A DNA stretch of 64,000 nt, from the NCBI RefSeq assembly GCF_003018235.1, contig NZ_CP027437.1; one strand, 5' to 3'. The notes under the pieces were generated by a model. It was not told the origin of the DNA. It did no database searches and worked only from the letters and a program-made list of their open reading frames with translations. How positions within the stretch are numbered: the stretch's first letter is position 1; every line of letters starts with the position of its first letter. Source of the DNA: Escherichia coli (lineage in GTDB: Bacteria; Pseudomonadota; Gammaproteobacteria; Enterobacterales; Enterobacteriaceae). This document shows positions 21,296-38,616 of this stretch, piece after piece. Made by a program: the position numbers and the translations under genes.

Positions 21296-21346
21296 GCCTG
21301 ATGCGCTTCGCTTATCAGGTCTATGTATGCCGGATAAGGCGTTTAC
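21296..21346. repeat. REP/BIME: one complete palindromic unit plus the left half of a second unit that is split by the IS; right half resumes at 22779-22797
   Basis: gcctgatgcgcttcgcttatcaggtc and gccggataaggcgtttac | ... | gtttacgccgcatccggca; joining the flanks restores a canonical REP palindrome. Confidence 0.8.
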
Positions 21347-21876
21347 TGAACTGCACCCCAAATGTTGGACACAATCTGACATCTGAAGGTGCAGTTTATG
21401 AAACATTCATTTGAAGTAAAACTTGCCGCTGTAAATCATTACCTGGCCGGTCATGCAGGCATCATTTCTACGGCAAAACTCTTTCAACTTTCTCACACCA
21501 GCCTCTCACACTGGATTAATCTTTTTCTTCTTCACGGTCCTCAGGCACTGGATTGCAGACACAAGCGTAGCTATTCTCCTGAAGATAAACTTTGCGTGGT
21601 TCTTTATGCTCTCGGGCATTCTGAGTCTCTACCCCGGGTAGCTGCCCGGTTTAACATTCCCAGCCACAACACGGTTAAAAACTGGATAAAAGGCTACCGC
21701 AAATCTGGTAATGAGGCCTTTATCAGGCGCAGGAAGGAGAAAAGCATGACCCGTTCTGATGATACCCATGAAAACGAGGCAAACATGACGCCGGAAGAGA
21801 TGAAGAATGAGCTGCGTTATCTTCGCGCAGAAAATGCATATCTGAAAGCCATGCAGGAGCATCTCCTGGAAAAAAA

Positions 21877-22778
<902 letters not shown>

Positions 22779-23829: not shown

Positions 23830-24399
23830 GTGAGCCAATTCATTCCCGTCGAATTACACCATGCCAGCCGTCTGTTAAATCATGGCCCAACAGTCATGAT
23901 CACCAGTTTCGATGAGCAATCCCAGCGGCGTAACATTATGGCTGCAGCCTGGTCGATGCCGGTGGAGTTTAAACCTCCACGCGTCGCGATTGTGGTAGAT
24001 AAGTCGACATGGACCAGGGAGTTGATTGAGCGTAACGGTAAATTTGGCATCGTTATCCCAGGCGTTGCAGCGACTAACTGGACGTGGGCAGTGGGAAGTG
24101 TATCTGGGCGTGAAGAGGATAAATTTAATTGCTATGGCATTCCGGTGGTGAAAGGTCCGGTGCTTGGTTTGCCACTTGTTGAAGAGAAATGTCTGGCGTG
24201 GATGGAGTGCCGATTGCTACCAGCGACTTCCGCGCAAGAGAAATACGACACGCTGTTTGGCGAAGTGGTATCAGCAGCGGCAGACGCACGGGTATTTGTC
24301 GAAGGCCGCTGGCAGTTTGATGATGATAAGCTCAATACGTTGCATCATTTAGGCGCTGGCACGTTTGTTACCAGCGGCAAGCGAGTCACCGCTGGCTAA
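23830..24399 (+). CDS. yddH: Flavin reductase-like domain protein (189 aa), GTG start
   Basis: GTG at 23830; flavin reductase-like sequence. Confidence 0.85.
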   Translation: MSQFIPVELHHASRLLNHGPTVMITSFDEQSQRRNIMAAAWSMPVEFKPPRVAIVVDKSTWTRELIERNGKFGIVIPGVAATNWTWAVGSVSGREEDKFNCYGIPVVKGPVLGLPLVEEKCLAWMECRLLPATSAQEKYDTLFGEVVSAAADARVFVEGRWQFDDDKLNTLHHLGAGTFVTSGKRVTAG

Positions 24400-24465: not shown

Positions 24466-25029
24466 TCACGATTGCATATTTTTAGTGAAGATTAATTTAT
24501 CCTCACCAACATCATAGTAATTGCGTATTATAGCTTCATTGATAAAGCCCTGTTTTGTATAAAATGCGCGGGTGGCACTAAAATCGACATAGCTGGAGGT
24601 CTCTACTAAAAGTAGTCTTGCGCAGGGAAAGGAGAACGCACTAATGACATGAATCGCTCCCCTGCGGCGACTCTTGTCATAAGAATGCCGGAGCGTTTTT
24701 CCATCAATTGCAATAACGTCTTTATCATCTGAAGAATGGCAGTCACGCATCCAGTTAATAAAGCACTCGTGAAATTTTGCAGGACTGATACAGGATACAA
24801 CTCTGGCAATGGTATCGTGAACAGAAATACCATTTTCAAAATCACCATATTGCTTCAAAAAATCGAGATGTGTTTCCCCAAAATCCTCTATATCTTCCCA
24901 GCCTTCTGCACCAGAAACAACGGCACAAATAGTCAACAGTAGAATATCAGACAATTTATATTCCACTTTCCAGGCTTGTCTGTAATCGGGGATAATAGAA
25001 ATATGTTCCATCAATTTTTTAAGTTCCAT
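24466..25029 (-). pseudogene. Truncated H-repeat (ISAs1-family) transposase N-terminus (~137 codons, 24619-25029) fused in frame to an unrelated ~50-codon 3' remnant
   Basis: [50 protein letters not shown]... matches H-rpt proteins up to ...AIHVISAFS, then diverges to ...[15 protein letters not shown]... (GNAT-like C-terminus). Confidence 0.75.
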
Positions 25030-25236
25030 TTTGTTCTCCTTAATTATGTAAGGAGTATTTGATCATGTATACGCAATAAAAAACAGCTTCAGGTAATGAG
25101 GAATATCTCAATTTTTAAACATAAAATGCGAATTATTTAGTACAAAAAATCAGCGTTACGTAATCTTTCCCTGATTAAACAGGTGGTTAAAGGAATGAAG
25201 GTGGGGATATCCGGCGTATTGAAAGAAGCATAAAAA

Positions 25237-25270
25237 TGAAAGCCGGGAAGTTCTAATTTTCTTCCCGGCT
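25237..25270 (-). terminator. Rho-independent terminator downstream of the orphan immunity gene
   Basis: aaagccgggaag ... cttcccggcttt with flanking T-run on the minus strand. Confidence 0.65.
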
Positions 25271-25274
25271 TTCA

Positions 25275-25559
25275 TTAGACTTCTTCTATTTCATATTTTA
25301 TAGACAATTCATGAAAGGCAGTAAATACCAGTGAAAATAATTTATCTCTATCACTTCCATTTAAATTATTTACAATGAAAAAACCATCCTCATGATCTTC
25401 TATTGAAAAATCAATCCAGTTTGAATAACTAGATGGAATCCAAAGTGAACCATCAGTATTAATCCGAGAGGATGGTTGATTTTCTTTTATTCTCTCGACA
25501 ATAAAAGAAAGTAAATTATCTACTTTATCATCAACATGTATAATATATTCAACACTCAT
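25275..25559 (-). CDS. Putative immunity protein for the orphan Rhs toxin tip (94 aa)
   Basis: Small AT-rich ORF 12 nt downstream of the orphan rhs-CT; no recognisable domain. Confidence 0.55.
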   Translation of the reverse strand: MSVEYIIHVDDKVDNLLSFIVERIKENQPSSRINTDGSLWIPSSYSNWIDFSIEDHEDGFFIVNNLNGSDRDKLFSLVFTAFHELSIKYEIEEV

Positions 25560-25571
25560 TAATTTCTTGCC

Positions 25572-26024
25572 TTATGCGCCGCACCCATGGGCTCGCCCTC
25601 GTTTTGTAGGATAATCATTTGGATTCCTGATCCCTATGTGTGTTTCATTCGGATTAGTACTCGGAATGCCTCTGTCATTCAGAGGTACCTCACCGGGATC
25701 ATATTTATGCACATGTGCGTTAGCCCCAGACTTAGGTAATGGATCACCGTTTTTCATCGTCATACTTTGATTTCCATAGGGATCGACACGAACTTTAGAG
25801 CCATCAGCGTGACTCCATGTCTGATTCCCGGTACTTGTTTGTTTATCCAAATTGAATCCATTATCAGTAAGAATAGAACCTATTGCCCCTGGGGATCTTC
25901 CTTTTAATTGAGGCAAATCAGAGGCGGCACTTAATCCAAGAGGATCTATCCATCCAAGAGGGTTAGGCGCATAAGCATACAGGTTTAACCCACCCGCCAG
26001 CCCTATCGGATCAGTACACAGATA
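25572..26024 (-). other. Orphan rhs C-terminal cassette: core-end remnant (DPIGLAGGLNLYAYAPNPLGWIDPLGL) plus a distinct ~115-aa toxin tip; no canonical start codon
   Basis: Frame is open from the stop at 26027-26025; 25931-26010 is nucleotide-homologous to 27001-27080 of the main rhs; track ORF start is a non-ATG (TTG) codon. Confidence 0.75.
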
Positions 26025-26138
26025 TTACCACGTCTCGCAATCATAGTACCGGAACCGATGATAGTACAGTCCCGCGTCATGCTATTAAAGACAATGTAGT
26101 GCGATGATATGTGTCATCCCTCAATTATTTTTATAAAA

Positions 26139-26645
26139 TCATATATTATCTTCCTGTTGCAGGAATTGATTATAAAAAGATAGTTTTTTATCTAAAAATA
26201 AAAAGTGATACCCAACCGACTTTAGATCATTATTTATGACAGATAATAACTTATTCCATTCATAGATATATTTATATTTATTTACAAGCAATACACTTTT
26301 ACTAGAATTTAAATTAAAAAGTTCATCCGTGTTTATGGAGATCCATTTTGAAAAAATTTCAATATTCTTTTTATCTATTTTAACATCTAATAATACCGTA
26401 AAGGATTCACATAAGAAATTGCATTCAAAGTTAAACCCGGAGATGATACCATCAAGCATTTTGATAATATCATCAATGATTTCACTCAGGCTATTAAGTG
26501 TTAGTGAAATATGAACGCCATTCCAGTTTATATAAAAACACCCGGATGATATGGGATATGCGGAAAATATAGCCTCCGATAAATTAATATCCTCTTCATC
26601 CATGAGGCCTTTTTGATAAGTATCATCAATTTCTATTTTGAACAT
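26139..26645 (-). CDS. Putative Rhs immunity protein (168 aa from ATG at 26645)
   Basis: ATG lies 1 nt after the rhs TAA stop (TAATATG); AT-rich; position typical of rhsI. Confidence 0.65.
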   Translation of the reverse strand: MFKIEIDDTYQKGLMDEEDINLSEAIFSAYPISSGCFYINWNGVHISLTLNSLSEIIDDIIKMLDGIISGFNFECNFLCESFTVLLDVKIDKKNIEIFSKWISINTDELFNLNSSKSVLLVNKYKYIYEWNKLLSVINNDLKSVGYHFLFLDKKLSFYNQFLQQEDNI

Positions 26646-26646
26646 A

Positions 26647-29600
26647 TTACTTACCCTTTTCATAAATGGGGCCTGCTGTCGATGAATCAATTGGGAAACC
26701 GTGAAAAGTCCCATCCCCATTATTTCTGACCCGAATTTTATCCGGTTTAATAGGTACTCCATTTCCTCCGGGAATATAAACTTCACTCTTACTATTTTGA
26801 TTTATAGGAAAATCTTTCATCTCATCCGGTTTTAGCGTGGCAGCTTGTTCTCCAGCATATTTCAGATCATCCTTGCTTCTCCAAACTCCATGAGGATTCT
26901 TTTCTTTATCTGCAATTGCTTGAGCTGCGTTAGGATGTAGTTTCATCCCATGCCTTTTCCCTCTTGAGTAACCATTCTCGGCTTTTAAGCAGGTGGGATT
27001 TAATCCAAGAGGATCGATCCAACTTAAAGGATTCGGCGCATAAGCGTACAGGTTTAACCCGCCTCTCAGCCCTATCGGGTCCGTTACCATGAACCGCCCG
27101 ACATCCGGATCATAGTACCTGTGCAGATTGTAGTGCAGCCCCGTTTCCCTGTCGAGGTACTGTCCCTGGTAGCGCAGGTTCTGCTCCACCCCGCCGTGGT
27201 CCTTCTCCTGTATCGTGTTACCCCAGACCTGATACCCCGTCTCCCACACGATTTTCCCGTCACTGTCCGTCATCTCTTCCGGCGCGCCGTTCACATCCGT
27301 GTGAAAATACAGTATCCGGTTCAGGCCCTCTTTACCCACCTTATCCACCCGCGCCAGCGGTTCATAACTCCCCGGGTCGCTGTAGATATACAGGCTGCTT
27401 ATTCCCTCCGGCCTGCTCTCCTGCGCCAGCCGCATTCCGTCCCATAAAAATGTCGTCCGGTTGTACGGTTTACCGTCAGGGCTGATGTGCTGTTTTTCCG
27501 TCCGCCTCCCCAGCGCATCGTACACATACCGGTACGTTCCCCGCGCTGTCGTCACTTCCACCATCCGGTGTTCCGCATCATAACGGTAACTCTGCGTGCC
27601 GCTCCGGCCCTCCTTTTCCACCGCACGGCCAAATTCGTCGTAACGGTAGTGCACACCACGGTAAGACATCAGCCGGTTGAACGGCACCACGCTGTTTTCT
27701 GCCGTGGCCCTTTCCCCCGCGCGCCGCGCCAGCAGGTTTCCCGCCGCGTCGTACTCCCAGCTCGCCAGATACCCCTCATCCTCCGAGCGGCACGCCGTGA
27801 TGCGCCCCGTGGGGTCGTAGAAGTAATCCGTTTCCCCCCGCCGGCTGTGCCGCGTCTTCAGCAGTTCATCCTCGCCGCTGTAGCTGTACTGCCGGTCCGT
27901 GAACGTCTCCGGTACCACCCCGCGCATCCCGCTGTATGTCTCCCTGCGCTTCAGCCGCCCGGCGGGGTCATAAAGCTGCCGCGTGCTCAGTCGCCCCTGA
28001 CTTCTGAGCACTTCCCGGTGCAGGGCGTCACGTGTGAACTCGCTGATGACCTCCCGGTCCAGATTTATCTGCTGGAGATGGCCGCTGCCGTAGTACAGAT
28101 GACGCTGCGTTCTGCCGTCCGGAAAGGTGGTGGCTGTCCGGTTGCTGAGTTCATCGTACTGATGGGTCAGGACGCCCTGCGCCGTCTCCTCAGTCAGCAT
28201 CCGCCCCAGTCTGTCGTAACTGAAGCGGATAATCTCCGGTGCGTCCATTTCCCCGGCATCCGACCGTCGGCGGCGGATTTCCAGTAGCTGGTCTGCCGCA
28301 TCATGGACGTATTCCGTACGGCTATCGGCTGTCTCCTTTGCCGTGAGCCGGCCCGCCGCATCACGTGCCAGCCGGTGGCGGATTTCACCGCCCCGGTCCC
28401 CTGTGAACACCACTTCCGTGACCGCGTTCAGCACGTTGTAACGGTACGTCTGGCGGCAGCCGTCCGGATTTATCTGCTCCGCCAGACGGTCCAGCACATC
28501 ATGGCGGAACCGGTAGTTTTCTCCGTTCTCGTTCGTGAGCGTGACCAGACGCCCGTAAGCATCGTACCCGAACGCCGTCCTGCGCCCCGTCGCGTCTGTC
28601 CGGCTGCGCACCCGGCCCTGCCCGTCCCGCTGCCAGCGCGTTATCCTCCCCATCGGGCTGGTGTACTTCACGAGCCTGCCCGCCGCGTCCGACTGGTAAT
28701 TCACCGTGCGGCCGTCCGCCAGTATCACCTCCGTCAGGTGGCCGCTGTCGTCATACCCGTAGCGCGTGCTGTGGCTCTGCGCGTCTGTCATCCGTATCAG
28801 CCGCGTGCGTTCGTCGTAGAACCAGGCCGTCTGCGAGCCGGAACAGTCCGTGTGCCGCATGAGCTGTCCGTCTTCGTTCCACTGAAGGTATTTATTCCCC
28901 CCGCGCGCATCCGTTATCTGCACCACCTGACCGTGGCGGTCATACTGATACCGGGTGTTCTGCTGCAGCGGGTCGGTCACCGCAAGAAGATTGCCGCGTT
29001 CATCGTACTCACAGCACCAGCTGTTCCCCGCCGCGTCCACCTCCGTTTCCGGCTGGTGCCACACCGGGTGCCACTGTGTCTGTGCCACCCGCCCCAGCGG
29101 GTCGTGCGTCTCCGTGATATGCCCCTGCCGGTCATACACATAGCGCCATTTGCCGCCCTGCGCATCGGTCATTCCCAGTAACAGCCGTTCTTCGTCGCTC
29201 CAGCGGAACGTCGTCACCTGCCCGGCTTCGTCCTGGTACGCCGTCACCTGGTTCTGCGCGTCCCACTGATGATAACGCGTGCGCCCCAGCCCGTCCGTCA
29301 CGCACAGCCTGCGTGCCGCGAGGCTCCACGCCAGCCGGTACTGTTCACCGCTGTCCGTGTGGTGCCCCGTCACCCGCCACGCTGCGTCATCCGGGCCTTC
29401 ATACCAGCCCCACTGGTAATAATACCCTTCGCCGCCCGGCTGGCGGTGCAGGGTCATGCAGTGGTTTTCGTCGTAAGCAAACTCGCGCAGCAGGTGCCCC
29501 GTGCTGTCGTACACGCCGTTCAGGTCGCCGGCCTCGTCATAGCGGTAACGACGCAGCAGTAAAGGAGCCGTCTCAGGGAAATGCTGATAAATCTGTGTCA

Positions 29601-31311
29601 CCCGCCGGGGATGCGCCGCCAGTTCATAATGCAGACGGATGCACGGACGCTGCTGTTCACCGCTGATTTGCGTGATGCGTCCCCGGTCGTCGTAGTACAG
29701 ATTCAGACAGTTGCTGTTGCGGTCGCCCAGCATTTTCAGCCGCTGGCGCTGCGGGTGACGCGGGTCGGCCTCAAACAGAAAAAACTGCCCGTCATCGCTG
29801 CTGATAAGCCAGTGCCCCTGCTCACCCCGCCGTACTGCCAGTCCTTCGCCGGGGCTGTAAAACCCGCTCCCCGGCAGCACGGCCTCCATATCCAGACGTC
29901 GTCCCATGCCCGACACAAAGGTCATACAGTTTTCGTCAGCAGTACCCGGCGTGCGCTCGAGGCTGACTTCATACATCACGCTCCAGCCCTGCCCGAACAT
30001 CCCTTCCGTGCGGTCGTCACGACTGCTGTACACGCGCTGCCAGTCCAGCGGAAAGTGGCCCGGCAGACTGAAATCGAAGTCATCGTCATCCGCCAGATAT
30101 TTGGCTCCGGTGGCGGCATTGACCGGATGCGGAAGGGCACTGATGGCCTTCTGCGTCATCACCCCCATCCCGACACTGGCAGCAAAACAGGCGATTTTAG
30201 AAAGCATTTTGCCCGGGCGAAGAAACATCAGCGCCACGGTTGCCACCAGGGTTATCTGCGACCTGCCGCTTCTGATATCCCTGACCACCAGTAACGGACC
30301 GCCAATGCGGACATCCGGTGACACAAACGCCCCGTTCCCCGGCTCATTCACCACCCTGGCCTCGCAGGTACAGCGTGCCCCGCTGCGCGCCGCCGGCTGG
30401 CTGTTGATACGCACATCCCGCGCGCCTTCCGCGATATATTCCGCTGCGGGCGGTTCATCATCGCCTTTGAACAGATTACTGATGCTGCCAATAACCGCAT
30501 TCACTCCCTGAAAGGCGGTTTCCAGCATACCGCCCGGACTCAGCAGGTTAAGGGCCGTTCCCAGAGGGTCATCCAGAAAGGCGGCTTTTTTTTGTGCGAG
30601 AAACTGCGTCAGTGAGGAGGGATGTTTATGGCAGTCGATTTTATCGTCAGGGGTCGGGGTGGAGCCCGGGGCCGCACTGGCCACGGTGGGCTGCCATAGT
30701 TCCGACACAAAATGTGTCACGCCATCCACCATTTCAGAACGCCCTTCTTCCGTACTGAGCTGGTCATGCAGCGCCCGGGACATCAGCACAGGCCCTGTCA
30801 CCGGGTTAACCGCCAGGGCTATGGCCCCCGCCATTTCCAGATATTCCCCGGCCACATCCCGGAACGTTCTGGCGTCCTCCTGACGCTGCGCTTCTTCCTG
30901 TTCCGCCTTCGCCTGTGCCTCCTGCGCCTCAATGTCCTGCCGCGATGCCGCAGTCGCCGCGGCCCGCGCGGCAGGTTTGCTGTTGATCCATGTGTCGCCA
31001 GAGCCGGTGAGGATGTAACCTTCAATCTGAGGCGGGAAAAGCCAGTTCGCCAGTTGCTCACTTTCCCTACTGATTCGGTCATTCCAGCCCTGATACGACA
31101 TAAATACCGCTGTTGCTATACCGATCGCTAAAATGGTTGAGCAGCCCAGCGTTGCCACTTCAACTCCGCCCAGCGCCGCCATGGTTCCGACAACCAGAAC
31201 ATCCACCAGGGCTGTGGCGGCAACCTCTACAACTGCCCCCAGCACATCTGCCATAAACGACGTATGCAGCAGGGCATCACCCTGCCTTGCCGCCCAGAAT
31301 GCCTCTTCCAT
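26647..31311 (-). CDS. Rhs-family polymorphic toxin / T6SS effector (1554 aa): prePAAR motif, N-terminal TM region, PAAR region, YD-repeat shell, PxxxxDPxGL, ~110-aa C-terminal toxin tip of unassigned family
   Basis: N-terminal AARQGDALLH motif; hydrophobic segment ADVLGAVVEVAATALVDVLVVGTMAALGG...; two PAAR tetrapeptides; numerous YD repeats; DPIGLRGGLNLYAYAPNPLSWIDPLGL before the tip. Confidence 0.9.
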   Translation of the reverse strand: MEEAFWAARQGDALLHTSFMADVLGAVVEVAATALVDVLVVGTMAALGGVEVATLGCSTILAIGIATAVFMSYQGWNDRISRESEQLANWLFPPQIEGYILTGSGDTWINSKPAARAAATAASRQDIEAQEAQAKAEQEEAQRQEDARTFRDVAGEYLEMAGAIALAVNPVTGPVLMSRALHDQLSTEEGRSEMVDGVTHFVSELWQPTVASAAPGSTPTPDDKIDCHKHPSSLTQFLAQKKAAFLDDPLGTALNLLSPGGMLETAFQGVNAVIGSISNLFKGDDEPPAAEYIAEGARDVRINSQPAARSGARCTCEARVVNEPGNGAFVSPDVRIGGPLLVVRDIRSGRSQITLVATVALMFLRPGKMLSKIACFAASVGMGVMTQKAISALPHPVNAATGAKYLADDDDFDFSLPGHFPLDWQRVYSSRDDRTEGMFGQGWSVMYEVSLERTPGTADENCMTFVSGMGRRLDMEAVLPGSGFYSPGEGLAVRRGEQGHWLISSDDGQFFLFEADPRHPQRQRLKMLGDRNSNCLNLYYDDRGRITQISGEQQRPCIRLHYELAAHPRRVTQIYQHFPETAPLLLRRYRYDEAGDLNGVYDSTGHLLREFAYDENHCMTLHRQPGGEGYYYQWGWYEGPDDAAWRVTGHHTDSGEQYRLAWSLAARRLCVTDGLGRTRYHQWDAQNQVTAYQDEAGQVTTFRWSDEERLLLGMTDAQGGKWRYVYDRQGHITETHDPLGRVAQTQWHPVWHQPETEVDAAGNSWCCEYDERGNLLAVTDPLQQNTRYQYDRHGQVVQITDARGGNKYLQWNEDGQLMRHTDCSGSQTAWFYDERTRLIRMTDAQSHSTRYGYDDSGHLTEVILADGRTVNYQSDAAGRLVKYTSPMGRITRWQRDGQGRVRSRTDATGRRTAFGYDAYGRLVTLTNENGENYRFRHDVLDRLAEQINPDGCRQTYRYNVLNAVTEVVFTGDRGGEIRHRLARDAAGRLTAKETADSRTEYVHDAADQLLEIRRRRSDAGEMDAPEIIRFSYDRLGRMLTEETAQGVLTHQYDELSNRTATTFPDGRTQRHLYYGSGHLQQINLDREVISEFTRDALHREVLRSQGRLSTRQLYDPAGRLKRRETYSGMRGVVPETFTDRQYSYSGEDELLKTRHSRRGETDYFYDPTGRITACRSEDEGYLASWEYDAAGNLLARRAGERATAENSVVPFNRLMSYRGVHYRYDEFGRAVEKEGRSGTQSYRYDAEHRMVEVTTARGTYRYVYDALGRRTEKQHISPDGKPYNRTTFLWDGMRLAQESRPEGISSLYIYSDPGSYEPLARVDKVGKEGLNRILYFHTDVNGAPEEMTDSDGKIVWETGYQVWGNTIQEKDHGGVEQNLRYQGQYLDRETGLHYNLHRYYDPDVGRFMVTDPIGLRGGLNLYAYAPNPLSWIDPLGLNPTCLKAENGYSRGKRHGMKLHPNAAQAIADKEKNPHGVWRSKDDLKYAGEQAATLKPDEMKDFPINQNSKSEVYIPGGNGVPIKPDKIRVRNNGDGTFHGFPIDSSTAGPIYEKGK

Positions 31312-31329
31312 GTCCCGTTCCCTGTGTGA

Positions 31330-31782
31330 TTAATTCGTCCCGGCTTCCTGCCGCATCCTGAAGCGCAGATTCTTTTTAATTTCAGCCCAGCGCGTCATAT
31401 CTGCCGGGGTCAGCGGTGTGGTTCTGGCGTAGGTGAAGGCCATCATGACCCGCTCACCCGGCAATACAAATGCCACCTGACACTGGTACACCTGCTCGTT
31501 ACCCCGGAGAAACTGGCTCTGTATTTCCAGTCCTTCTTCACCGTCATTAATCCCCACCCGTGTTACCTGAACGGGCGTGTAGTGAAGATCCTTTACCTGT
31601 TTCTCCAGTTTTTTCATTTGCTGTTCAATCTGGGAGGCTAATTCGTCTCCTTCCTGCATCTGGCCCCGGCTGATAATGAGTGCAGCGTCGGGATCGCTGA
31701 GGCGCAGCATATTAATAGTACTGTCCTGAATAATATTCCCGGAAAAAGTTACAACAGTTTCATTGAGATAATACTCCGTCAT
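31330..31782 (-). CDS. DUF1795/Eag-family chaperone for the prePAAR effector TM domain (150 aa)
   Basis: Size and position between vgrG and the prePAAR rhs match Eag chaperones; family assignment is by context and recall, not by search. Confidence 0.65.
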   Translation of the reverse strand: MTEYYLNETVVTFSGNIIQDSTINMLRLSDPDAALIISRGQMQEGDELASQIEQQMKKLEKQVKDLHYTPVQVTRVGINDGEEGLEIQSQFLRGNEQVYQCQVAFVLPGERVMMAFTYARTTPLTPADMTRWAEIKKNLRFRMRQEAGTN

Positions 31783-33763
31783 AATGATATGAGTCCTTTT
31801 AAATTAATAAATTATTTAATGATGGTTTTTGTTTATTTTTTAGTCATGAAGGCGACATCTATCGCCAATTGAAGGGCTGTTTTTTCCGATGTTCCAGGCG
31901 GAAGTATATCTGCCGCCCTGTTATTCATATTTAAATCAAGCTGACCTGATTGTGTATTTATCTTTCCATTTTCTGTTGCAGTAATATTAAAATTCTTACA
32001 GGTTATATTAAATATTCCGTCACTGGTCATTTGCAGGATAGTGTTCCCACAACTAAGAATTATGGAATCTCCCGCAGCAAGGCGTAAATTCTGTACGGCC
32101 TGAATCGTTTTATTTTGTCCGGCAAGGGAGGTATCATCCATCTGAACTGTAAGAGAACGTTCCTCACCAATTATCGCTGTTTCTGTTTTATCAATGACTT
32201 TAAGGCGATTATTGCCCACCCAGTGGCTTTCATTATTATTTACTTCAATCCGCTGATCTTTTTCGGCATGTAGCCAGACCTCTTCACCGCCAGGTTTATC
32301 CTCAAAACGTAGTGCGTTGGCATTGGTTGGGCCGCCGCCGATAGTGTGACTGTAAAATCCGCTTTGCGTCGCTGCGCCCGGTAGTCCCCACGGTGGCATG
32401 GTGTCCTGGTTGTAGGTACGCCCAACAATTATCGGTAAATCCGGATCACCGTTTTTGAAATCCACCAGTACTTCCTGACCAATGCGCGGGATCTGAATGC
32501 CACCGAATCCTTTACCCGCCCACGGATAACTGACACGGACCCAGCAGGAACTATTTTCGTCATTCTTACCGTAACGATCCCAGCCAAACTGAACTTTCAC
32601 CCGGCCATATTTATCTGTCCAGATTTCCTGCCCTGCCGGGCCGGTGACGATGGCGCTCTGCGGGCCTTTAGTGTGGGGTTTGCTCAGGGTTCGTTGTGGG
32701 CGGTAAACTTCGCTGGTGGGATGCAGTTCAAAGCTGGTTGAGTAAGAGAAATGCTGCTCCTGGCCGCTGTGTTGCGCATTGTCCTGTATAAATAGCGTGG
32801 TCTGTACCAGCAGATATTCCCGGTTCACTTCGGCTGTCGGATAGTTTTCCAGGATGAAGGTAAAACCTGTCATCAGGGTACGAATATTGCCGCTGCCCTG
32901 TACCCGACTACCTGGGCTACGCTGTTCTTCCATGCGAATGCGTGTCAGCATTTCACCTTCACTCTTTGTGAAGTAATCTCCCGGCCATTCGTAGTGCTCA
33001 TATTCAGCAAGGCCGGTTTCACGCGGATTAGCCACGGTGCTCTTCAGCAGTGAACGCGGCTTCATAAAGTCGAAATCATTCAGCACCCACTGTCCACTGC
33101 GCAGACTTTCATTTGCTGTGATGGTATGGATAAACTCCTTGTCCAGTTTCAGCCCTTTCTGGTAATAACACACCAGCGGCGAATCTGCGCATGCCTTGTG
33201 GACATTAATGGCATCAGCCAGCACTAACGTGTGACTGTTCTCGCTGTGCTCAAACCACCAGTAGATACCCCACTCCTGCATCAGGCGCTGAACAAAATCG
33301 AAATCTGTTTCACCGTACTGCACCTGCCAGGCGCGAGTCGGATAATTTTCCACCAGTCGTTTTTCCACTGGCCAGGGGTACTCATCCAGTACCTCATCCA
33401 GGATCTCCACCACGTTTTTATTCTGAAACGCTTTGTAGTCACTAGTGTGGGTCAGTATTTTTAACCACGGTTCGAGCCGCAGTTCATACACCACCGAACG
33501 TCCTTGATGACCAGCCACGCGTGCCGCCGTCACCAGCCCGCTGATATAACGTTTTCCGCCGCCATCCAATTCGATATTGACGCACAGATCTTTGCCCACC
33601 ATCGGTTTGAGCTGCAGGTTGGCTGCGGGGGAAACATAGCCCAGGTTCAGGATGTCAGGAGTTTTTAATTTAATAGAATAAGTAAATAGTTCCCCTACTG
33701 TTTCTGTACCCCCTAAGCTTGCAAACAGTAACATGATCCTACCCACGTAATGTGGACACGGCC

Positions 33764-34618
33764 CTAAGCGAGATTATGGTTTTCAAATTGTTCCGGGCTG
33801 AGACCGCCACAGGCACTGTGACGACGCCAGCGATTGTAATCACTCTCGATATAATTAAACACCGTTGCCCGCATTATTTCCCGGCTGCTAAAGCGTTCCC
33901 CGTGGATACATTCCACCTTCAGCGAATGAAAGAAGCTTTCCACACAGGCATTGTCATAACAGTAGCCTTTCGCACTCATACTGCCACGCAGGTTGTGTCG
34001 CTTCAGCATTGCCTGATAATCCCCTGAACAGTATTGACCACCACGGTCCGTATGAACAATGACGTTTTCCGGGCGTCTTCTCCGCCACAACGCCATTTGC
34101 AGTGCATCACAGGCCAGTTGTGCTGTCATTCGCGGTGACATCGACCAGCCAATGACGGCGCGTGACCACAGGTCGATGACTACTGCGAGATACAACCAGC
34201 CCTCATCGGTACGCAAGTACGTGATGTCACCCGCCCACTTCTGGTTCGGGCCACTGGCGCTGAAGTCCTGCTCCAGCAGATTCTCCAATACGGGCAGGCC
34301 ATGTGCACGGTAGCTGACCGGGCTGAACTTCCGGCTGGCTTTCGCCCGCAGCCCCTGACGACGCAGGCTGGCGGCAATGGTTTTAATATTGAACTCCGGC
34401 AGTTCGTCAGCAAGGCGGGGAGCACCGTATCGCTGCTTTGCCTCAAAGAATGCCTTATGGACAGCGGCATCGCAGGTGAGCCGAAACTGTTGGCGCAGGC
34501 TCATCTGGTGACGACGCCTGAGCCAGACATACCAGCCGCTGCGGGCAACCCGAAGTACACGACACATCGCTTTGATGCTGAACTCTGCCCGATGATTTTC
34601 GATGAAGACATACTTCAT
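33764..34618 (-). CDS. insF: IS3 transposase OrfB (DDE integrase core; made by -1 frameshift from OrfA)
   Basis: rve-domain sequence ...[34 protein letters not shown]...; overlaps orfA end. Confidence 0.9.
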
Positions 34619-34914
34619 TTCAGGCGCTTCGCGAAGTATGTCGCGGCCTTTTGGAGGATGGCCAGTTCCTCAGCCTGCTCCGCCAGTTGTCGTTTAAGGC
34701 GGACATTTTCAGCGGCCAGTTCGCTTTCGCGCTCTGACGAACTCATTTGTTGCTGCTGTTTACTGCGCCAGGCATAAAGCTGAGATTCATACAGGCTGAG
34801 TTCACGGGCTGCGGCGGCCACACCGATGCGTTCAGCGAGTTTCAGGGCTTCGTTACGAAATTCAGGCGTATGTTGTTTACGGGGCTTCTTGCTGATTGAT
34901 ACTGGTTTTGTCAT
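34615..34914 (-). CDS. insE: IS3 transposase OrfA (99 aa)
   Basis: [52 protein letters not shown]... Confidence 0.9.
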
Positions 34915-35295
34915 GAGTCACCTCTGGTTGAGAGTTTACTCACTTAGTCCTGTGTCCACTATTGGTGGGTAAGATCAACATTCCATCAGGAACTGCGCTG
35001 CCGCTCAAAGTCACGTTATGTGTACCCGATCCAGTTAGTGCGCCGGATGGATAATCTGTAGCTGCAAAACTCATAATTAATCCTTTTAACTAGAAATGGA
35101 TAAGTGCTAATAAGAAATCTTACAGAGAATAAAATATGCAATATATTCGTAGCTGGCATAAAACATCTCAATACTTATGCGTGCTACTGAAGATACTATC
35201 AACCATATATGCCTTGAAGAATGCACCGTCATGTTAACCTGGTGGAAACATTCACCTAAAGTACATTAATAAAACTAATAAAATTATTTAATTTG

Positions 35296-35652
35296 TTATT
35301 TGATATGATTATCATCAAGTCTTAAAATACGTTCTCCGGTTCTAATTATGTTAAAACCATAGTATTCTTTTTTACTTTCGGAAGAGAGCATATATTTCCC
35401 GATATACATAACATCTGAAGATAGCTCACTTATATCAATACATACGGGTTCGAACTGACCTGTCACTCTTTTCAACTTTATTGCATTGCCATATTTACCT
35501 TCATATAAAACATAATTTGAAATAATATTCCCATCGTCTGGTTTTGAACAAATCTGTCCGTCTTGCAAATATACACTACCGGGTAACAATGGGCGAACAT
35601 AATCACCAACAGTGCATCCCGACAAAAAGAAAAACAAAAAGAATCTCTTCAT
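35296..35652 (-). CDS. Predicted outer-membrane lipoprotein (118 aa); candidate immunity protein for the upstream HExxH protein
   Basis: Signal peptide plus lipobox MKRFFLFFFLSG-C; Thr at +2; ATGA overlap with the upstream gene. Confidence 0.7.
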   Translation of the reverse strand: MKRFFLFFFLSGCTVGDYVRPLLPGSVYLQDGQICSKPDDGNIISNYVLYEGKYGNAIKLKRVTGQFEPVCIDISELSSDVMYIGKYMLSSESKKEYYGFNIIRTGERILRLDDNHIK

Positions 35653-36218
35653 ATGACACCCGCAGGAAATAAATTAAGCACCTTTTTGTATTTTTCCGAT
35701 AGAGTGTTCACTGATTCAGTTGTATCACCTACATAGTTAACATTTGCCAAATCAGCCACCAGTCCATAGTTAATTAATAGCCAATAATCAGCAACTATAG
35801 ATGCTTGTTGTTCCATGGAATAAGAAGAAATTGACTGTAAATTAAGATCGTAATGATAATTTGCCGCCCAAGAAAATAAACCACGCAACTTAACTGCATA
35901 CCCTTTCTGATATTGCCAAACATGCATCATTTCATGAATAAACAAGTGAGAAGCACCTGCTACTGTTTCACGATCACCAGGCATTGCTTGCGATGAATAA
36001 TCTGAACTATAAACAGCATCAGGATAATACATTTCCCCGTTTGGGGTCATCGCTGTTCTTTCCCCTTGACCAGGCAAATATTTTTCATTGTGGATCCATA
36101 CCTTGCTATAATCAATTGTATTCTCAAAAATCGATCTGGCCAATGTTAATTCACCAGATGTCATTCTCCTTAATGACATATCCTTTCCCCTGGAAATAAT
36201 ATCTTTCAGATAAAACAC
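35649..36218 (-). CDS. DUF4157-like zincin metallopeptidase-fold protein with HExxH motif (189 aa); candidate antibacterial effector
   Basis: Motifs IDYSKVWIH ... GEMYYP ... SHLFIHEMMHVWQYQ; no signal peptide; translationally coupled to the lipoprotein ORF. Confidence 0.65.
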   Translation of the reverse strand: MFYLKDIISRGKDMSLRRMTSGELTLARSIFENTIDYSKVWIHNEKYLPGQGERTAMTPNGEMYYPDAVYSSDYSSQAMPGDRETVAGASHLFIHEMMHVWQYQKGYAVKLRGLFSWAANYHYDLNLQSISSYSMEQQASIVADYWLLINYGLVADLANVNYVGDTTESVNTLSEKYKKVLNLFPAGVI

Positions 36219-37116
36219 AAACGCCCTTTGATGTTCAATATTCCCACTTTATACAGTATTGATGACATCATATTCATAGAAAATAAAATCAAAGCAAGTT
36301 ATCAACGTTTCCCGTTATGATTTCTTAACATTAATTCTCAGCATTTTTATTAATCTATCTTCAATATCAATAACCGATGCAAATGATTACGCAGCTAACA
36401 TAATTCTCATCAATTGATTAATGTCTGTAAACGCTACCGCCCCACCCTGATATCTTAATCTGCACATAGCAATCTTAACGTTATGCCCCATACATTAGTA
36501 ATGTAAATTAAGAATTCGGAATATATCAAATTCACTTCATAAATTAATATCGGGAATGATATACACATTAATTATAATGAAGTAATGTTTTAAGAGTTGT
36601 AATGACCATGGAACAGGATTAATTCCAGAAGCTCCTGTTGGGCAATAGCGCGTTTATCATCCTACATGCCTCTTACATTTTTTAGCCTTTTCTTTAACGT
36701 CAGCAATTGGCTCATTTAATCAGCAATTGTATTGGTATTTGGCGTATTACCCCTGAAACCCGTCATGTGCTAGCACCTCACTATTCAATGAGCCAACCAC
36801 GCCAGTGTCCACTGCAACCACTGGCGTTCAGAGCGACGAACGAGTGGCGCAAGAGTAAGACTGCCGTCGGGCATCATCAAACCAATAGTGGTTGTTTCCG
36901 TCAAAATTTCATCAGGTTGCTATTTTGTTGCCGGCCGCCTTTATCCCCACATATTTATAGCGGGATTATTTTGCATCGTTACACGATAAAAGGTAGGATT
37001 CTGCGCCGACAGTTATACCCATAAAGAATAATGGTGAATCTTGTCATCGCCAGGATGAATAAACATTGTTCATGGCAACTTATATGACTTTTTCATTAAA
37101 GCAATCAGGGAGAGCA

Positions 37117-38616
37117 ATGAGTAAACACGACACCGACACTTCAGATCAACACGCCGCGAAACGCCGCTGGCTTAATGCCCACGAAGAGGGGTATCACAAA
37201 GCGATGGGCAATCGCCAGGTACAGATGATCGCCATTGGCGGCGCGATTGGTACGGGTTTGTTTTTAGGCGCGGGAGCCCGACTGCAAATGGCGGGGCCAG
37301 CACTGGCACTGGTCTATTTGATCTGCGGCCTGTTTTCATTTTTTATTCTGCGTGCATTGGGTGAGCTGGTGTTACACCGCCCTTCCAGTGGCAGTTTTGT
37401 CTCTTATGCCCGTGAGTTTTTAGGAGAGAAAGCCGCTTACGTTGCAGGCTGGATGTACTTCATCAACTGGGCGATGACGGGGATTGTCGATATTACCGCC
37501 GTCGCTCTGTATATGCATTACTGGGGTGCGTTTGGCGGCGTGCCGCAGTGGGTCTTTGCGCTCGCTGCGCTGACCATCGTTGGCACCATGAATATGATCG
37601 GTGTGAAATGGTTTGCCGAGATGGAGTTCTGGTTTGCGCTTATTAAAGTGCTCGCCATTGTTACCTTTTTGGTCGTGGGTACAGTGTTCCTCGGTAGTGG
37701 TCAGCCGCTGGATGGCAACACCACTGGTTTTCATTTAATTACCGATAACGGCGGCTTCTTCCCCCACGGTTTGCTGCCTGCGCTGGTGTTGATTCAGGGC
37801 GTAGTGTTTGCTTTTGCCTCCATTGAAATGGTGGGTACAGCTGCCGGAGAATGTAAAGATCCGCAGACCATGGTGCCTAAAGCCATTAACAGTGTGATTT
37901 GGCGTATTGGCCTGTTTTACGTCGGCTCCGTGGTGTTGCTGGTTATGTTATTGCCGTGGAGCGCATATCAGGCGGGGCAAAGTCCGTTCGTGACGTTTTT
38001 CTCTAAACTGGGTGTGCCATATATCGGCAGCATTATGAACATTGTGGTGCTGACCGCTGCCCTCTCCAGCCTGAACTCAGGTCTGTACTGCACCGGACGT
38101 ATTCTGCGCTCAATGGCGATGGGCGGTTCCGCACCGAGTTTTATGGCGAAAATGAGTCGTCAGCATGTGCCGTATGCCGGGATTCTGGCGACACTGGTTG
38201 TGTATGTCGTCGGCGTATTCCTCAACTATCTGGTGCCGTCGCGCGTATTTGAGATTGTGTTGAACTTCGCGTCGCTGGGAATCATCGCCTCATGGGCGTT
38301 TATCATCGTGTGCCAGATGCGCCTGCGTAAAGCGATTAAAGAAGGCAAAGCCGCGGATGTCAGTTTTAAACTGCCTGGCGCGCCCTTCACTTCCTGGCTG
38401 ACATTACTGTTTTTGCTGAGCGTCCTGGTGCTGATGGCGTTCGATTACCCGAACGGGACTTATACCATCGCGGCGCTGCCGATTATCGGTATTCTGCTGG
38501 TTATAGGCTGGTTTGGTGTGCGCAAACGCGTTGCTGAAATTCACAGCACTGCGCCAGTCGTCGAGGAAGATGAAGAACAACAGGAAATTGTGTTTAAGCC
38601 TGAAACGGCGAGTTAA
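37117..38616 (+). CDS. ansP: L-asparagine permease (APC family, 499 aa)
   Basis: ATG at 37117 after GGGAGAG; MSKHDTDTSDQHAAKRRWLNAHEEGYHKAMGNRQVQMIAIGGAIGTGLF... Confidence 0.92.
   Translation: MSKHDTDTSDQHAAKRRWLNAHEEGYHKAMGNRQVQMIAIGGAIGTGLFLGAGARLQMAGPALALVYLICGLFSFFILRALGELVLHRPSSGSFVSYAREFLGEKAAYVAGWMYFINWAMTGIVDITAVALYMHYWGAFGGVPQWVFALAALTIVGTMNMIGVKWFAEMEFWFALIKVLAIVTFLVVGTVFLGSGQPLDGNTTGFHLITDNGGFFPHGLLPALVLIQGVVFAFASIEMVGTAAGECKDPQTMVPKAINSVIWRIGLFYVGSVVLLVMLLPWSAYQAGQSPFVTFFSKLGVPYIGSIMNIVVLTAALSSLNSGLYCTGRILRSMAMGGSAPSFMAKMSRQHVPYAGILATLVVYVVGVFLNYLVPSRVFEIVLNFASLGIIASWAFIIVCQMRLRKAIKEGKAADVSFKLPGAPFTSWLTLLFLLSVLVLMAFDYPNGTYTIAALPIIGILLVIGWFGVRKRVAEIHSTAPVVEEDEEQQEIVFKPETAS

Follow-up and report, generated by a model that had tools for sequence, protein, structure and literature searches.

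In enterohemorrhagic Escherichia coli (EHEC), vgrG islands with type VI secretion system 2 (T6SS-2)-like VgrGs have been found at rhsE (PMC7216683). Ahmad et al. 2020 (PMC7773334) set out the class I prePAAR architecture of Rhs effectors. The C-terminal domain of Pseudomonas aeruginosa VgrG2b is a zinc metallopeptidase that is toxic in the periplasm (Wood et al. 2019, PMC6899460), and stand-alone "cargo" homologues of this domain occur in Enterobacteriaceae, followed by lipoprotein immunity genes downstream (PMC6899460). Bacterial RNase A-like toxins have likewise been described on CdiA, Rhs, and ESAT-6-type proteins (PMC5435912). Here, these systems were compared with an island at 24.4 to 36.3 kb, on the minus strand, of a 64-kb stretch of E. 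coli chromosome (contig NZ_CP027437.1; the window).

The original prediction, made from the DNA sequence, had described a T6SS-associated Rhs/VgrG effector island at rhsE that was mosaic and partly decayed. This description was borne out, its parts being backed by profile, structure, or comparative evidence. With a probability of roughly 85%, the island is an E. coli rhsE-locus "vgrG island," that is, an auxiliary cargo module for a T6SS encoded elsewhere. Much of what it holds is already described: the architecture, the site, the Eag/prePAAR/Rhs logic, orphan tips, flanking H-repeats, and the pairing of a VgrG2b-type metallopeptidase with an immunity lipoprotein. The novelty lies in the allele, with a rare tip-immunity pair of an uncatalogued family, an orphan module at the rhsE locus, and a private ISEc16 insertion.

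Architecture of the rhsE-locus island

The island is flanked by yddH (23830-24399, + strand) and ansP (37066-38616, + strand), which is the classical rhsE position. The minus-strand order of its parts is metallopeptidase, lipoprotein, vgrG with ISEc16 inside it, Eag chaperone, prePAAR-PAAR-Rhs, rhsI, orphan tip with its immunity gene, and truncated ISAs1 (Table 1). A check of the open reading frames (ORFs) listed in the original prediction found them all on the minus strand where it had placed them. The whole window aligned end to end with strain HCP5S3_I2 (NZ_CM149870.1) at 96 to 99% identity, from maeA/adhP to ydcH/opgD, and the parts specific to the window relative to this reference were IS1397 in the yddE/nhoA gap, ISEc16, about 1.8 kb of Rhs tips, and a divergent 174-bp patch in the 5′ part of rhs. 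No tss or hcp genes were present among the reference genes collinear with the 64-kb window, in agreement with the predicted lack of tssA-M and hcp.

Prevalence was counted in a comparison set of 5,426 complete E. coli genomes. The metallopeptidase-lipoprotein pair was found next to ansP in 221 of these (∼4%). The vgrG2-rhsE island of EHEC EDL933 (z2262-z2257) and the 221 kindred genomes share with this locus the site between yddH and ansP and the flanking ISAs1/H-repeat, and the shared vgrG, eag, and rhs-core genes were 97 to 99.7% identical to those of two aligned reference alleles. The present island differs from the known ones in its unique main tip and rhsI, in an orphan module that replaces symE, in the ISEc16 copy within vgrG, and in the truncation of ISAs1. 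The possibility that this is a common, already annotated rhsE allele, which the original prediction had named as its own refutation, therefore held for the architecture, a common arrangement, but was ruled out for the main tip/rhsI and for the insertion sequence (IS) junction; the exact allele was found in none of the genomes.

Table 1. Positions of the island's features, in minus-strand order
Feature	Position	Strand	Description	Evidence
Zinc metallopeptidase effector candidate	35649..36179	-	176 aa, HEMMH motif	Profile and fold match to VgrG2b C-terminal effector family
Lipoprotein, candidate metallopeptidase immunity	35296..35652	-	118 aa, lipobox LSGC	Position, sequence, weak NF045617 match
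vgrG 5′ stub	34978..35074	-	Codons 1-32 and first base of codon 33	Alignment to intact alleles
ISEc16	33734..34977	-	Full length, IS3 family, 1244 bp, same orientation as vgrG	Identity to annotated copies; IS3 transposase, E = 2.9e-96
ISEc16 orfA	34914-34615	-	Overlapping transposase ORF	
ISEc16 orfB	34618-33764	-	Overlapping transposase ORF	
vgrG 3′ part	31833..33733	-	Codons 32/33-664	TIGR03361, E = 5.4e-167
Eag-family chaperone	31330..31782	-	150 aa, DUF1795/DcrB	Pfam PF08786, E = 1.1e-18
Class I prePAAR Rhs effector	26647..31311	-	Intact, 1554 aa	Profile and motif evidence; uninterrupted ORF
Main toxin tip	26647..27000	-	117 aa, Rhs aa 1438-1554; predicted RNase A-like, uncatalogued family	
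rhsI, cognate immunity candidate	26139..26645	-	168 aa, 28% G+C	Position; Salmonella pairing
Orphan rhs fragment	25572..26090	-	∼150 nt of core end, then a different ∼119-aa toxin tip	Sequence, frame, core-end repeat
Orphan immunity candidate	25275..25559	-	94 aa, 27% G+C	Position; same pairing in CP015229
ISAs1 (H-repeat, ydcC-type) transposase gene	24632..25029	-	5′ third only	NF033564, E = 4.5e-40, model positions 1-106 of 314
Acetyltransferase (GNAT-like) C-terminal remnant	24466..24631	-	In-frame fusion to truncated ISAs1 ORF	Aligns with yddH-proximal reference sequence

The predicted swings in G+C content were also observed. From 62% in the Rhs core and 60% in the Rhs N-terminal region, values fell to 41% in the main toxin tip, 37% in the HExxH gene, and 33% in the lipoprotein gene, and were lowest in the two immunity genes at the other end of the island (Table 1); the window average was 49%. 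Assembly of the island from differently sourced modules is supported, as is its partial decay.

The protein that had been proposed as an HExxH effector candidate was found to be a VgrG2b effector-domain homologue. In an hmmsearch run, a profile built from 41 homologues matched PDB 6H56, the effector domain of P. aeruginosa VgrG2b, at an E value of 1.1e-34. Similarly, Foldseek with the AlphaFold2 (AF2) model, which had a predicted local distance difference test score (pLDDT) of 91, returned 6H56 at an E value of 4.7e-9 and a template modeling score (TM) of 0.64. Residues H82, E83, and H86 of the HExxH zinc motif were invariant across the 41 homologues, and no Pfam or NCBIfam family was matched. 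By profile and by model, the predicted protein belongs with the C-terminal metallopeptidase effectors of the VgrG2b family. Its start was set at the ATG at 36179, as annotated in other genomes, which gives the length of 176 aa. Well over 100 relatives were present across Enterobacterales, many of them misnamed "type IV secretion protein Rhs."

In comparison to P. aeruginosa VgrG2b and PA0261, the locus has a homologous HExxH domain (30% identity) and a small envelope-targeted ORF immediately 3′ of it. It differs in that the metallopeptidase is free-standing and encoded upstream of vgrG rather than fused to the spike, a cargo-type arrangement like that of SARI_02727 from S. arizonae, and in that the immunity candidate is a lipoprotein, unlike the VgrG2b immunity protein PA0261. 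The start of the lipoprotein gene overlaps the metallopeptidase stop by 4 nt. The metallopeptidase would act in the periplasm of the prey, and the adjacent lipoprotein would neutralize it in the producer.

The Eag-like chaperone of the original prediction was recovered as a member of PF08786. It also showed a weak sequence match to the SciW structures 6XRB/6XRR (E ∼2e-3), and its homologues are annotated as "DcrB-related protein" in other genomes. The eag gene ends 18 nt upstream of rhs, whose product has the domain order prePAAR, hydrophobic region, PAAR motifs, DUF6531, YD-repeat shell, core, and 117-aa toxin tip; prePAAR, PAAR, and Rhs had all been anticipated. The prePAAR motif AARQGDALLH at aa 7 to 16 fits AARxxDxxxH, and the hydrophobic region at aa 13 to 75 (Kyte-Doolittle hydropathy >1.3) precedes the first of two PAAR motifs, at aa 113 and 306. 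Matches were obtained to YD_repeat_2x (E = 4.9e-64) and Rhs_assc_core (E = 1.5e-28), together with 20 matches to Pfam RHS_repeat or RHS, 11 of them at E ≤ 0.001. The core end at aa 1411 to 1437 carries the autocleavage motif DPIGL (aa 1411) … DPLGL (aa 1433). The protein fits the class I prePAAR architecture, and by analogy its export would depend on a T6SS and on the Eag chaperone.

Salmonella Rhs1/SciW, P. protegens RhsA/EagR1, and Photorhabdus Tre23/EagR (PMC7773334, PMC8636562) share with the present protein AARxxDxxxH, one hydrophobic region near the N terminus, the YD shell, the DPxGL motifs, and a DUF1795 gene directly upstream, as well as PAAR, for which the match here is partial. They differ in length, the Rhs protein here being 1554 aa versus ∼1200 aa, in its ∼190-aa PAAR insert, and in the toxin tip. 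The insert lies between the PAAR motifs at aa 113 and 306 (∼30390-30975) and is partly rich in Glu, Gln, and Ala (EAQEAQAKAEQEEAQRQED); at aa 153 to 179 it has a second hydrophobic patch, weaker than the first. The 174-bp patch at 31043 to 31216, which encodes the hydrophobic N-terminal region, aligned with strain R32_14_1F and not with HCP5S3_I2, which suggests mosaic recombination within the Rhs N terminus.

In an intact copy of the island, a single VgrG spike would be loaded with both the metallopeptidase and the class I prePAAR Rhs effector as toxins. The Eag/DUF1795 chaperone would shield the N-terminal membrane helices of Rhs, and the PAAR domain would cap VgrG. The YD-repeat shell would enclose the 117-aa C-terminal toxin until its release by autocleavage at DPxGL, with RhsI blocking the toxin in the producer.

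The vgrG gene and its insertion sequence

An IS3 element had been placed between the lipoprotein gene and vgrG. The element was identified as ISEc16, and alignment to intact alleles located it inside vgrG, at codon 33; the alternative of an ISEc16 copy upstream of an intact vgrG was rejected on the same alignment. This copy was 99.4% identical to annotated ISEc16 copies over 100% of the length, its terminal inverted repeats matched at 30/40 positions, and a 3-bp target duplication, TGT, was present at both ends. Translation of the 97-nt vgrG stub would run on into the IS for 11 foreign codons before a stop, yielding a 44-aa peptide. Intact vgrG alleles in other genomes are 1995 bp long. When the IS and one TGT were removed in silico, a 664-aa VgrG ORF was obtained that was identical to WP_059341537.1 at 663/664 positions, and the insertion was therefore taken to be recent. 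Because ISEc16 interrupts it at codon 33, the spike gene is a recent pseudogene, with a strong domain match and no full-length ORF. The vgrG::ISEc16 junction was found in 0/5,426 genomes. With the insertion, the dedicated spike gene is broken, and transcription of eag-rhs-rhsI is probably reduced.

At 33734-33732, the terminal A of ISEc16 joins the duplicated TG to form the native Met32 ATG of vgrG anew and in frame, leaving a possible 633-aa, N-terminally shortened VgrG ORF. This bears on whether the island is still operational, with eag-rhs-rhsI read through from ISEc16 or from an internal promoter and the Rhs protein carried on a paralogous VgrG or on the shortened one (32-664). In keeping with such a scenario, ISEc16 is co-oriented with vgrG, the shortened ORF still covers positions 12-512 of 513 of the TIGR03361 model, and eag, rhs, and rhsI are intact. 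Substitution by a paralogue is conceivable, since the three VgrGs of EHEC are ≥90% identical to one another (PMC7216683). However, the recreated ATG has no ribosome-binding site at a suitable distance, AGGA lying only 2 to 3 nt upstream, and the shortened ORF has lost the first ∼11 positions of the VgrG core model. A promoter scan also gave no promoter-like site between the end of the IS and vgrG. An operational island was considered unlikely.

Both intact and more decayed versions of the rhsE island were present in other genomes, the heavily decayed ones having a truncated vgrG and a frameshifted rhs. These, together with the disrupted vgrG, an orphan tip that cannot be translated, and the truncated ISAs1, would suit an island that is dead as a weapon and persists as an immunity set, in which the lipoprotein, RhsI, and the orphan immunity protein protect the cell from kin firing the same toxins. 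Yet no disruptions are seen in eag, in the metallopeptidase gene, or in the 4.7-kb ORF of rhs, and the halves of vgrG are undiverged, which implies that the insertion was too recent for decay to have ensued. Persistence as an immunity set alone appeared rather unlikely, and the interpretation as a T6SS cargo island with a recently interrupted spike gene was retained. What the data show are the identities of the genes, the insertion, and how rare this allele is; how the toxins are delivered, what they do enzymatically, and whether they are expressed are inferences.

Toxin tips and candidate immunity genes

The main toxin tip matched no Pfam family, nor did 42 of its relatives. Nine relatives were obtained in a word-indexed search of 5.8 billion clusters, and an exhaustive profile search gave 173 clusters at 50% identity, in which the domain was always C-terminal; all four long carriers tested were Rhs/YD-repeat proteins. 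Apart from Gly and Pro, just two side chains were invariant across the family, His17 and His100, the latter within the motif T-F-H-G-[FY]-P. The AF2 model had a pLDDT of 94, and with it Foldseek ranked 5E3E first, weakly, at an E value of 0.28 and a probability of 0.51. On the model, an RNase A superfamily fold was accepted for the tip, as a similarity at the level of the fold only. Judged from this model, the tip most likely adopts an RNase A-like fold and acts as a ribonuclease that needs no metal, with two putative catalytic histidines. Whether it represents an uncatalogued bacterial RNase A-like family (∼170 clusters at 50% identity, no Pfam model) with a vertebrate-type two-histidine center is a more specific proposal, which is put forward tentatively and at somewhat less than even odds.

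The structure ranked first is that of CdiA-CT from Yersinia kristensenii 33638 (PDB 5E3E, PMC5435912), to which the main tip has no detectable sequence similarity. CdiA-CT(Ykris) uses His175, Arg186, and Thr276/Tyr278, whereas the main-tip family keeps two invariant histidines, and the former is delivered on CdiA but the latter on Rhs proteins. The tip might also not be a ribonuclease at all, the RNase A-like shape being a convergent small alpha+beta scaffold in a toxin that acts on something else, for example, DNA, nucleotides, or the membrane. The modest Foldseek probability, the lack of a Pfam family, and the lack of a sequence-level link to any solved RNase would all be compatible with this. 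The two invariant histidines, as a 2′,3′-cyclizing RNase would need, and the high confidence of the model argue against it, and a nonribonuclease tip was judged improbable. A ribonuclease thus remains the preferred assignment. When the tip profiles were run against PDB sequences, the matches obtained, for example, to alkaline phosphatase and urease, were dismissed as chance.

The rhsI gene begins 1 nt after the rhs stop codon, at the ATG at 26645 and not at the GTG at 26786. No significant Pfam or NCBIfam family was found for its product, for the orphan immunity protein, or for either toxin tip. Salmonella enterica has a homologue of the main tip (53% identity) and, directly after it, one of RhsI (32% identity, E = 4e-17), and this co-occurrence supports the main tip and rhsI as a cognate toxin-immunity pair. 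In S. enterica JAEAGZ010000022.1, the main-tip homologue is an orphan module, located downstream of a Tox-PAAR-like/DUF6531 Rhs with an Ntox30 tip; hence, the family appears to move between main and orphan positions. The DNA of the main tip and rhsI was found in 0/5,426 genomes. Among E. coli records other than these complete genomes, a partial protein with 97% identity was present.

Orphan rhs-CT/rhsI modules are reportedly known from Salmonella and E. coli rhs loci, as described in the work of Jackson (2009) and Koskiniemi (2014). Like these, the module found here consists of a core-end stub, an alternative tip, and an immunity gene, lying 3′ of the main rhs and beside ISAs1/H-repeat; unlike them, its stub carries an in-frame TAA. 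The prediction of an orphan rhs-CT with its immunity gene stood in that strain 06-00048 (CP015229) has the same tip-ORF pair, at 93% identity, at its rhsC locus, where it forms the end of a protein annotated as RHS. It required correction in that the stub has the TAA and no usable start codon, and the tip is therefore untranslatable as it stands. The tip had 29 relatives, on Rhs or PT-HINT proteins, with no Pfam family, and a comparison with PDB sequences retrieved nothing.

A search of the island for direct repeats of ≥40 nt gave a single one, the 94-nt core end (82% identity, 1069-bp spacing). Since the TAA lies upstream of the repeat, recombination within it would give a clean in-frame fusion. 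The orphan module may accordingly be pictured as a silent reserve, in which recombination across the 94-nt repeat would swap the main tip and rhsI for the orphan tip. A GC-rich hairpin with a T-run was noted 3′ of the orphan immunity gene (∼25240-25275). The type I toxin gene symE, which lies between rhsI and ISAs1 in reference alleles, is absent here (25179-25275).

Several of the observations weigh against the reading of this locus as a T6SS cargo island with a ribonuclease-tipped Rhs effector. T6SS core genes are absent from the 64-kb window, so that delivery would have to be by a T6SS elsewhere. The PAAR domain of Rhs is matched only in part by Pfam (PAAR_motif, E = 2e-5, model positions 39-69 of 70), is far below the cutoff for NCBIfam T6SS_PAAR_dom, and is split by the ∼190-aa insert. 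The match of the lipoprotein to NF045617, "putative T6SS immunity periplasmic lipoprotein" (E = 1.1e-7, 32 bits), falls below the curated cutoff of 43 bits. The RNase assignment of the main tip comes from a predicted structure, for which the Foldseek result by itself is weak, and profiles of the tip searched against PDB sequences at E ≤ 10 did not retrieve 5E3E. A promoter/terminator scan gave nothing decisive on IS polarity or downstream expression.

Island boundaries and significance

Of the truncated H-repeat proposed at the yddH end, the N-terminal third of an ISAs1 transposase was recovered, but the 187-aa ORF (25029-24466) that had carried the name was shown to be a deletion chimera with an acetyltransferase remnant, fused at about 24632/24622. 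The remnant is native yddH-flank sequence with a weak rimI-like match (E = 0.002). Relative to NZ_CM149870.1, ∼1.16 kb is deleted at this end, and the deletion junction was shared by 4/5,426 genomes, e.g., strain LR-28. At the other end, the sequence between the island and ansP (∼36785-36904) corresponds to what other genomes have annotated as a short remnant of a glutathione S-transferase gene (yncG). It marks the ansP-side boundary; yncG and yncH proper are missing here.

An Rfam scan of 23.5 to 37.5 kb gave no matches, neither a symR-like nor any other RNA, and PADLOC on five island proteins returned a noise match only, with no sign of an anti-phage defense system. Elsewhere in the window, IS1397 (IS3 family; 21324-22778) is inserted between yddE and nhoA, a site that is occupied in ∼1,705/5,426 genomes; two ORFs make up its transposase, in line with a programmed frameshift. 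Beside ompC (∼9155-9161), the window lacks ∼700 bp that are present in NZ_CM149870.1, including an IS200/IS605 tnpA, the alignment skipping from position 10477 to 11183 of the reference stretch compared.

The main value of the analysis lies in correct annotation of this stretch as a standard T6SS cargo island. A gene beside ansP that is listed as "hypothetical" or misnamed "type IV secretion protein Rhs" can now be assigned, by profile and predicted fold, to the VgrG2b metallopeptidase effector family. With its spike gene very recently lost to an IS, the locus also offers an example of how T6SS cargo islands are switched off and decay. The main-tip family, a toxin domain family not described before, has a confident model resembling RNase A and two invariant histidines, and would be a cheap and clear target for biochemistry. 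If the proposed two-histidine center is real, no bacterial protein characterized so far would be as close a counterpart of RNase A as this family.

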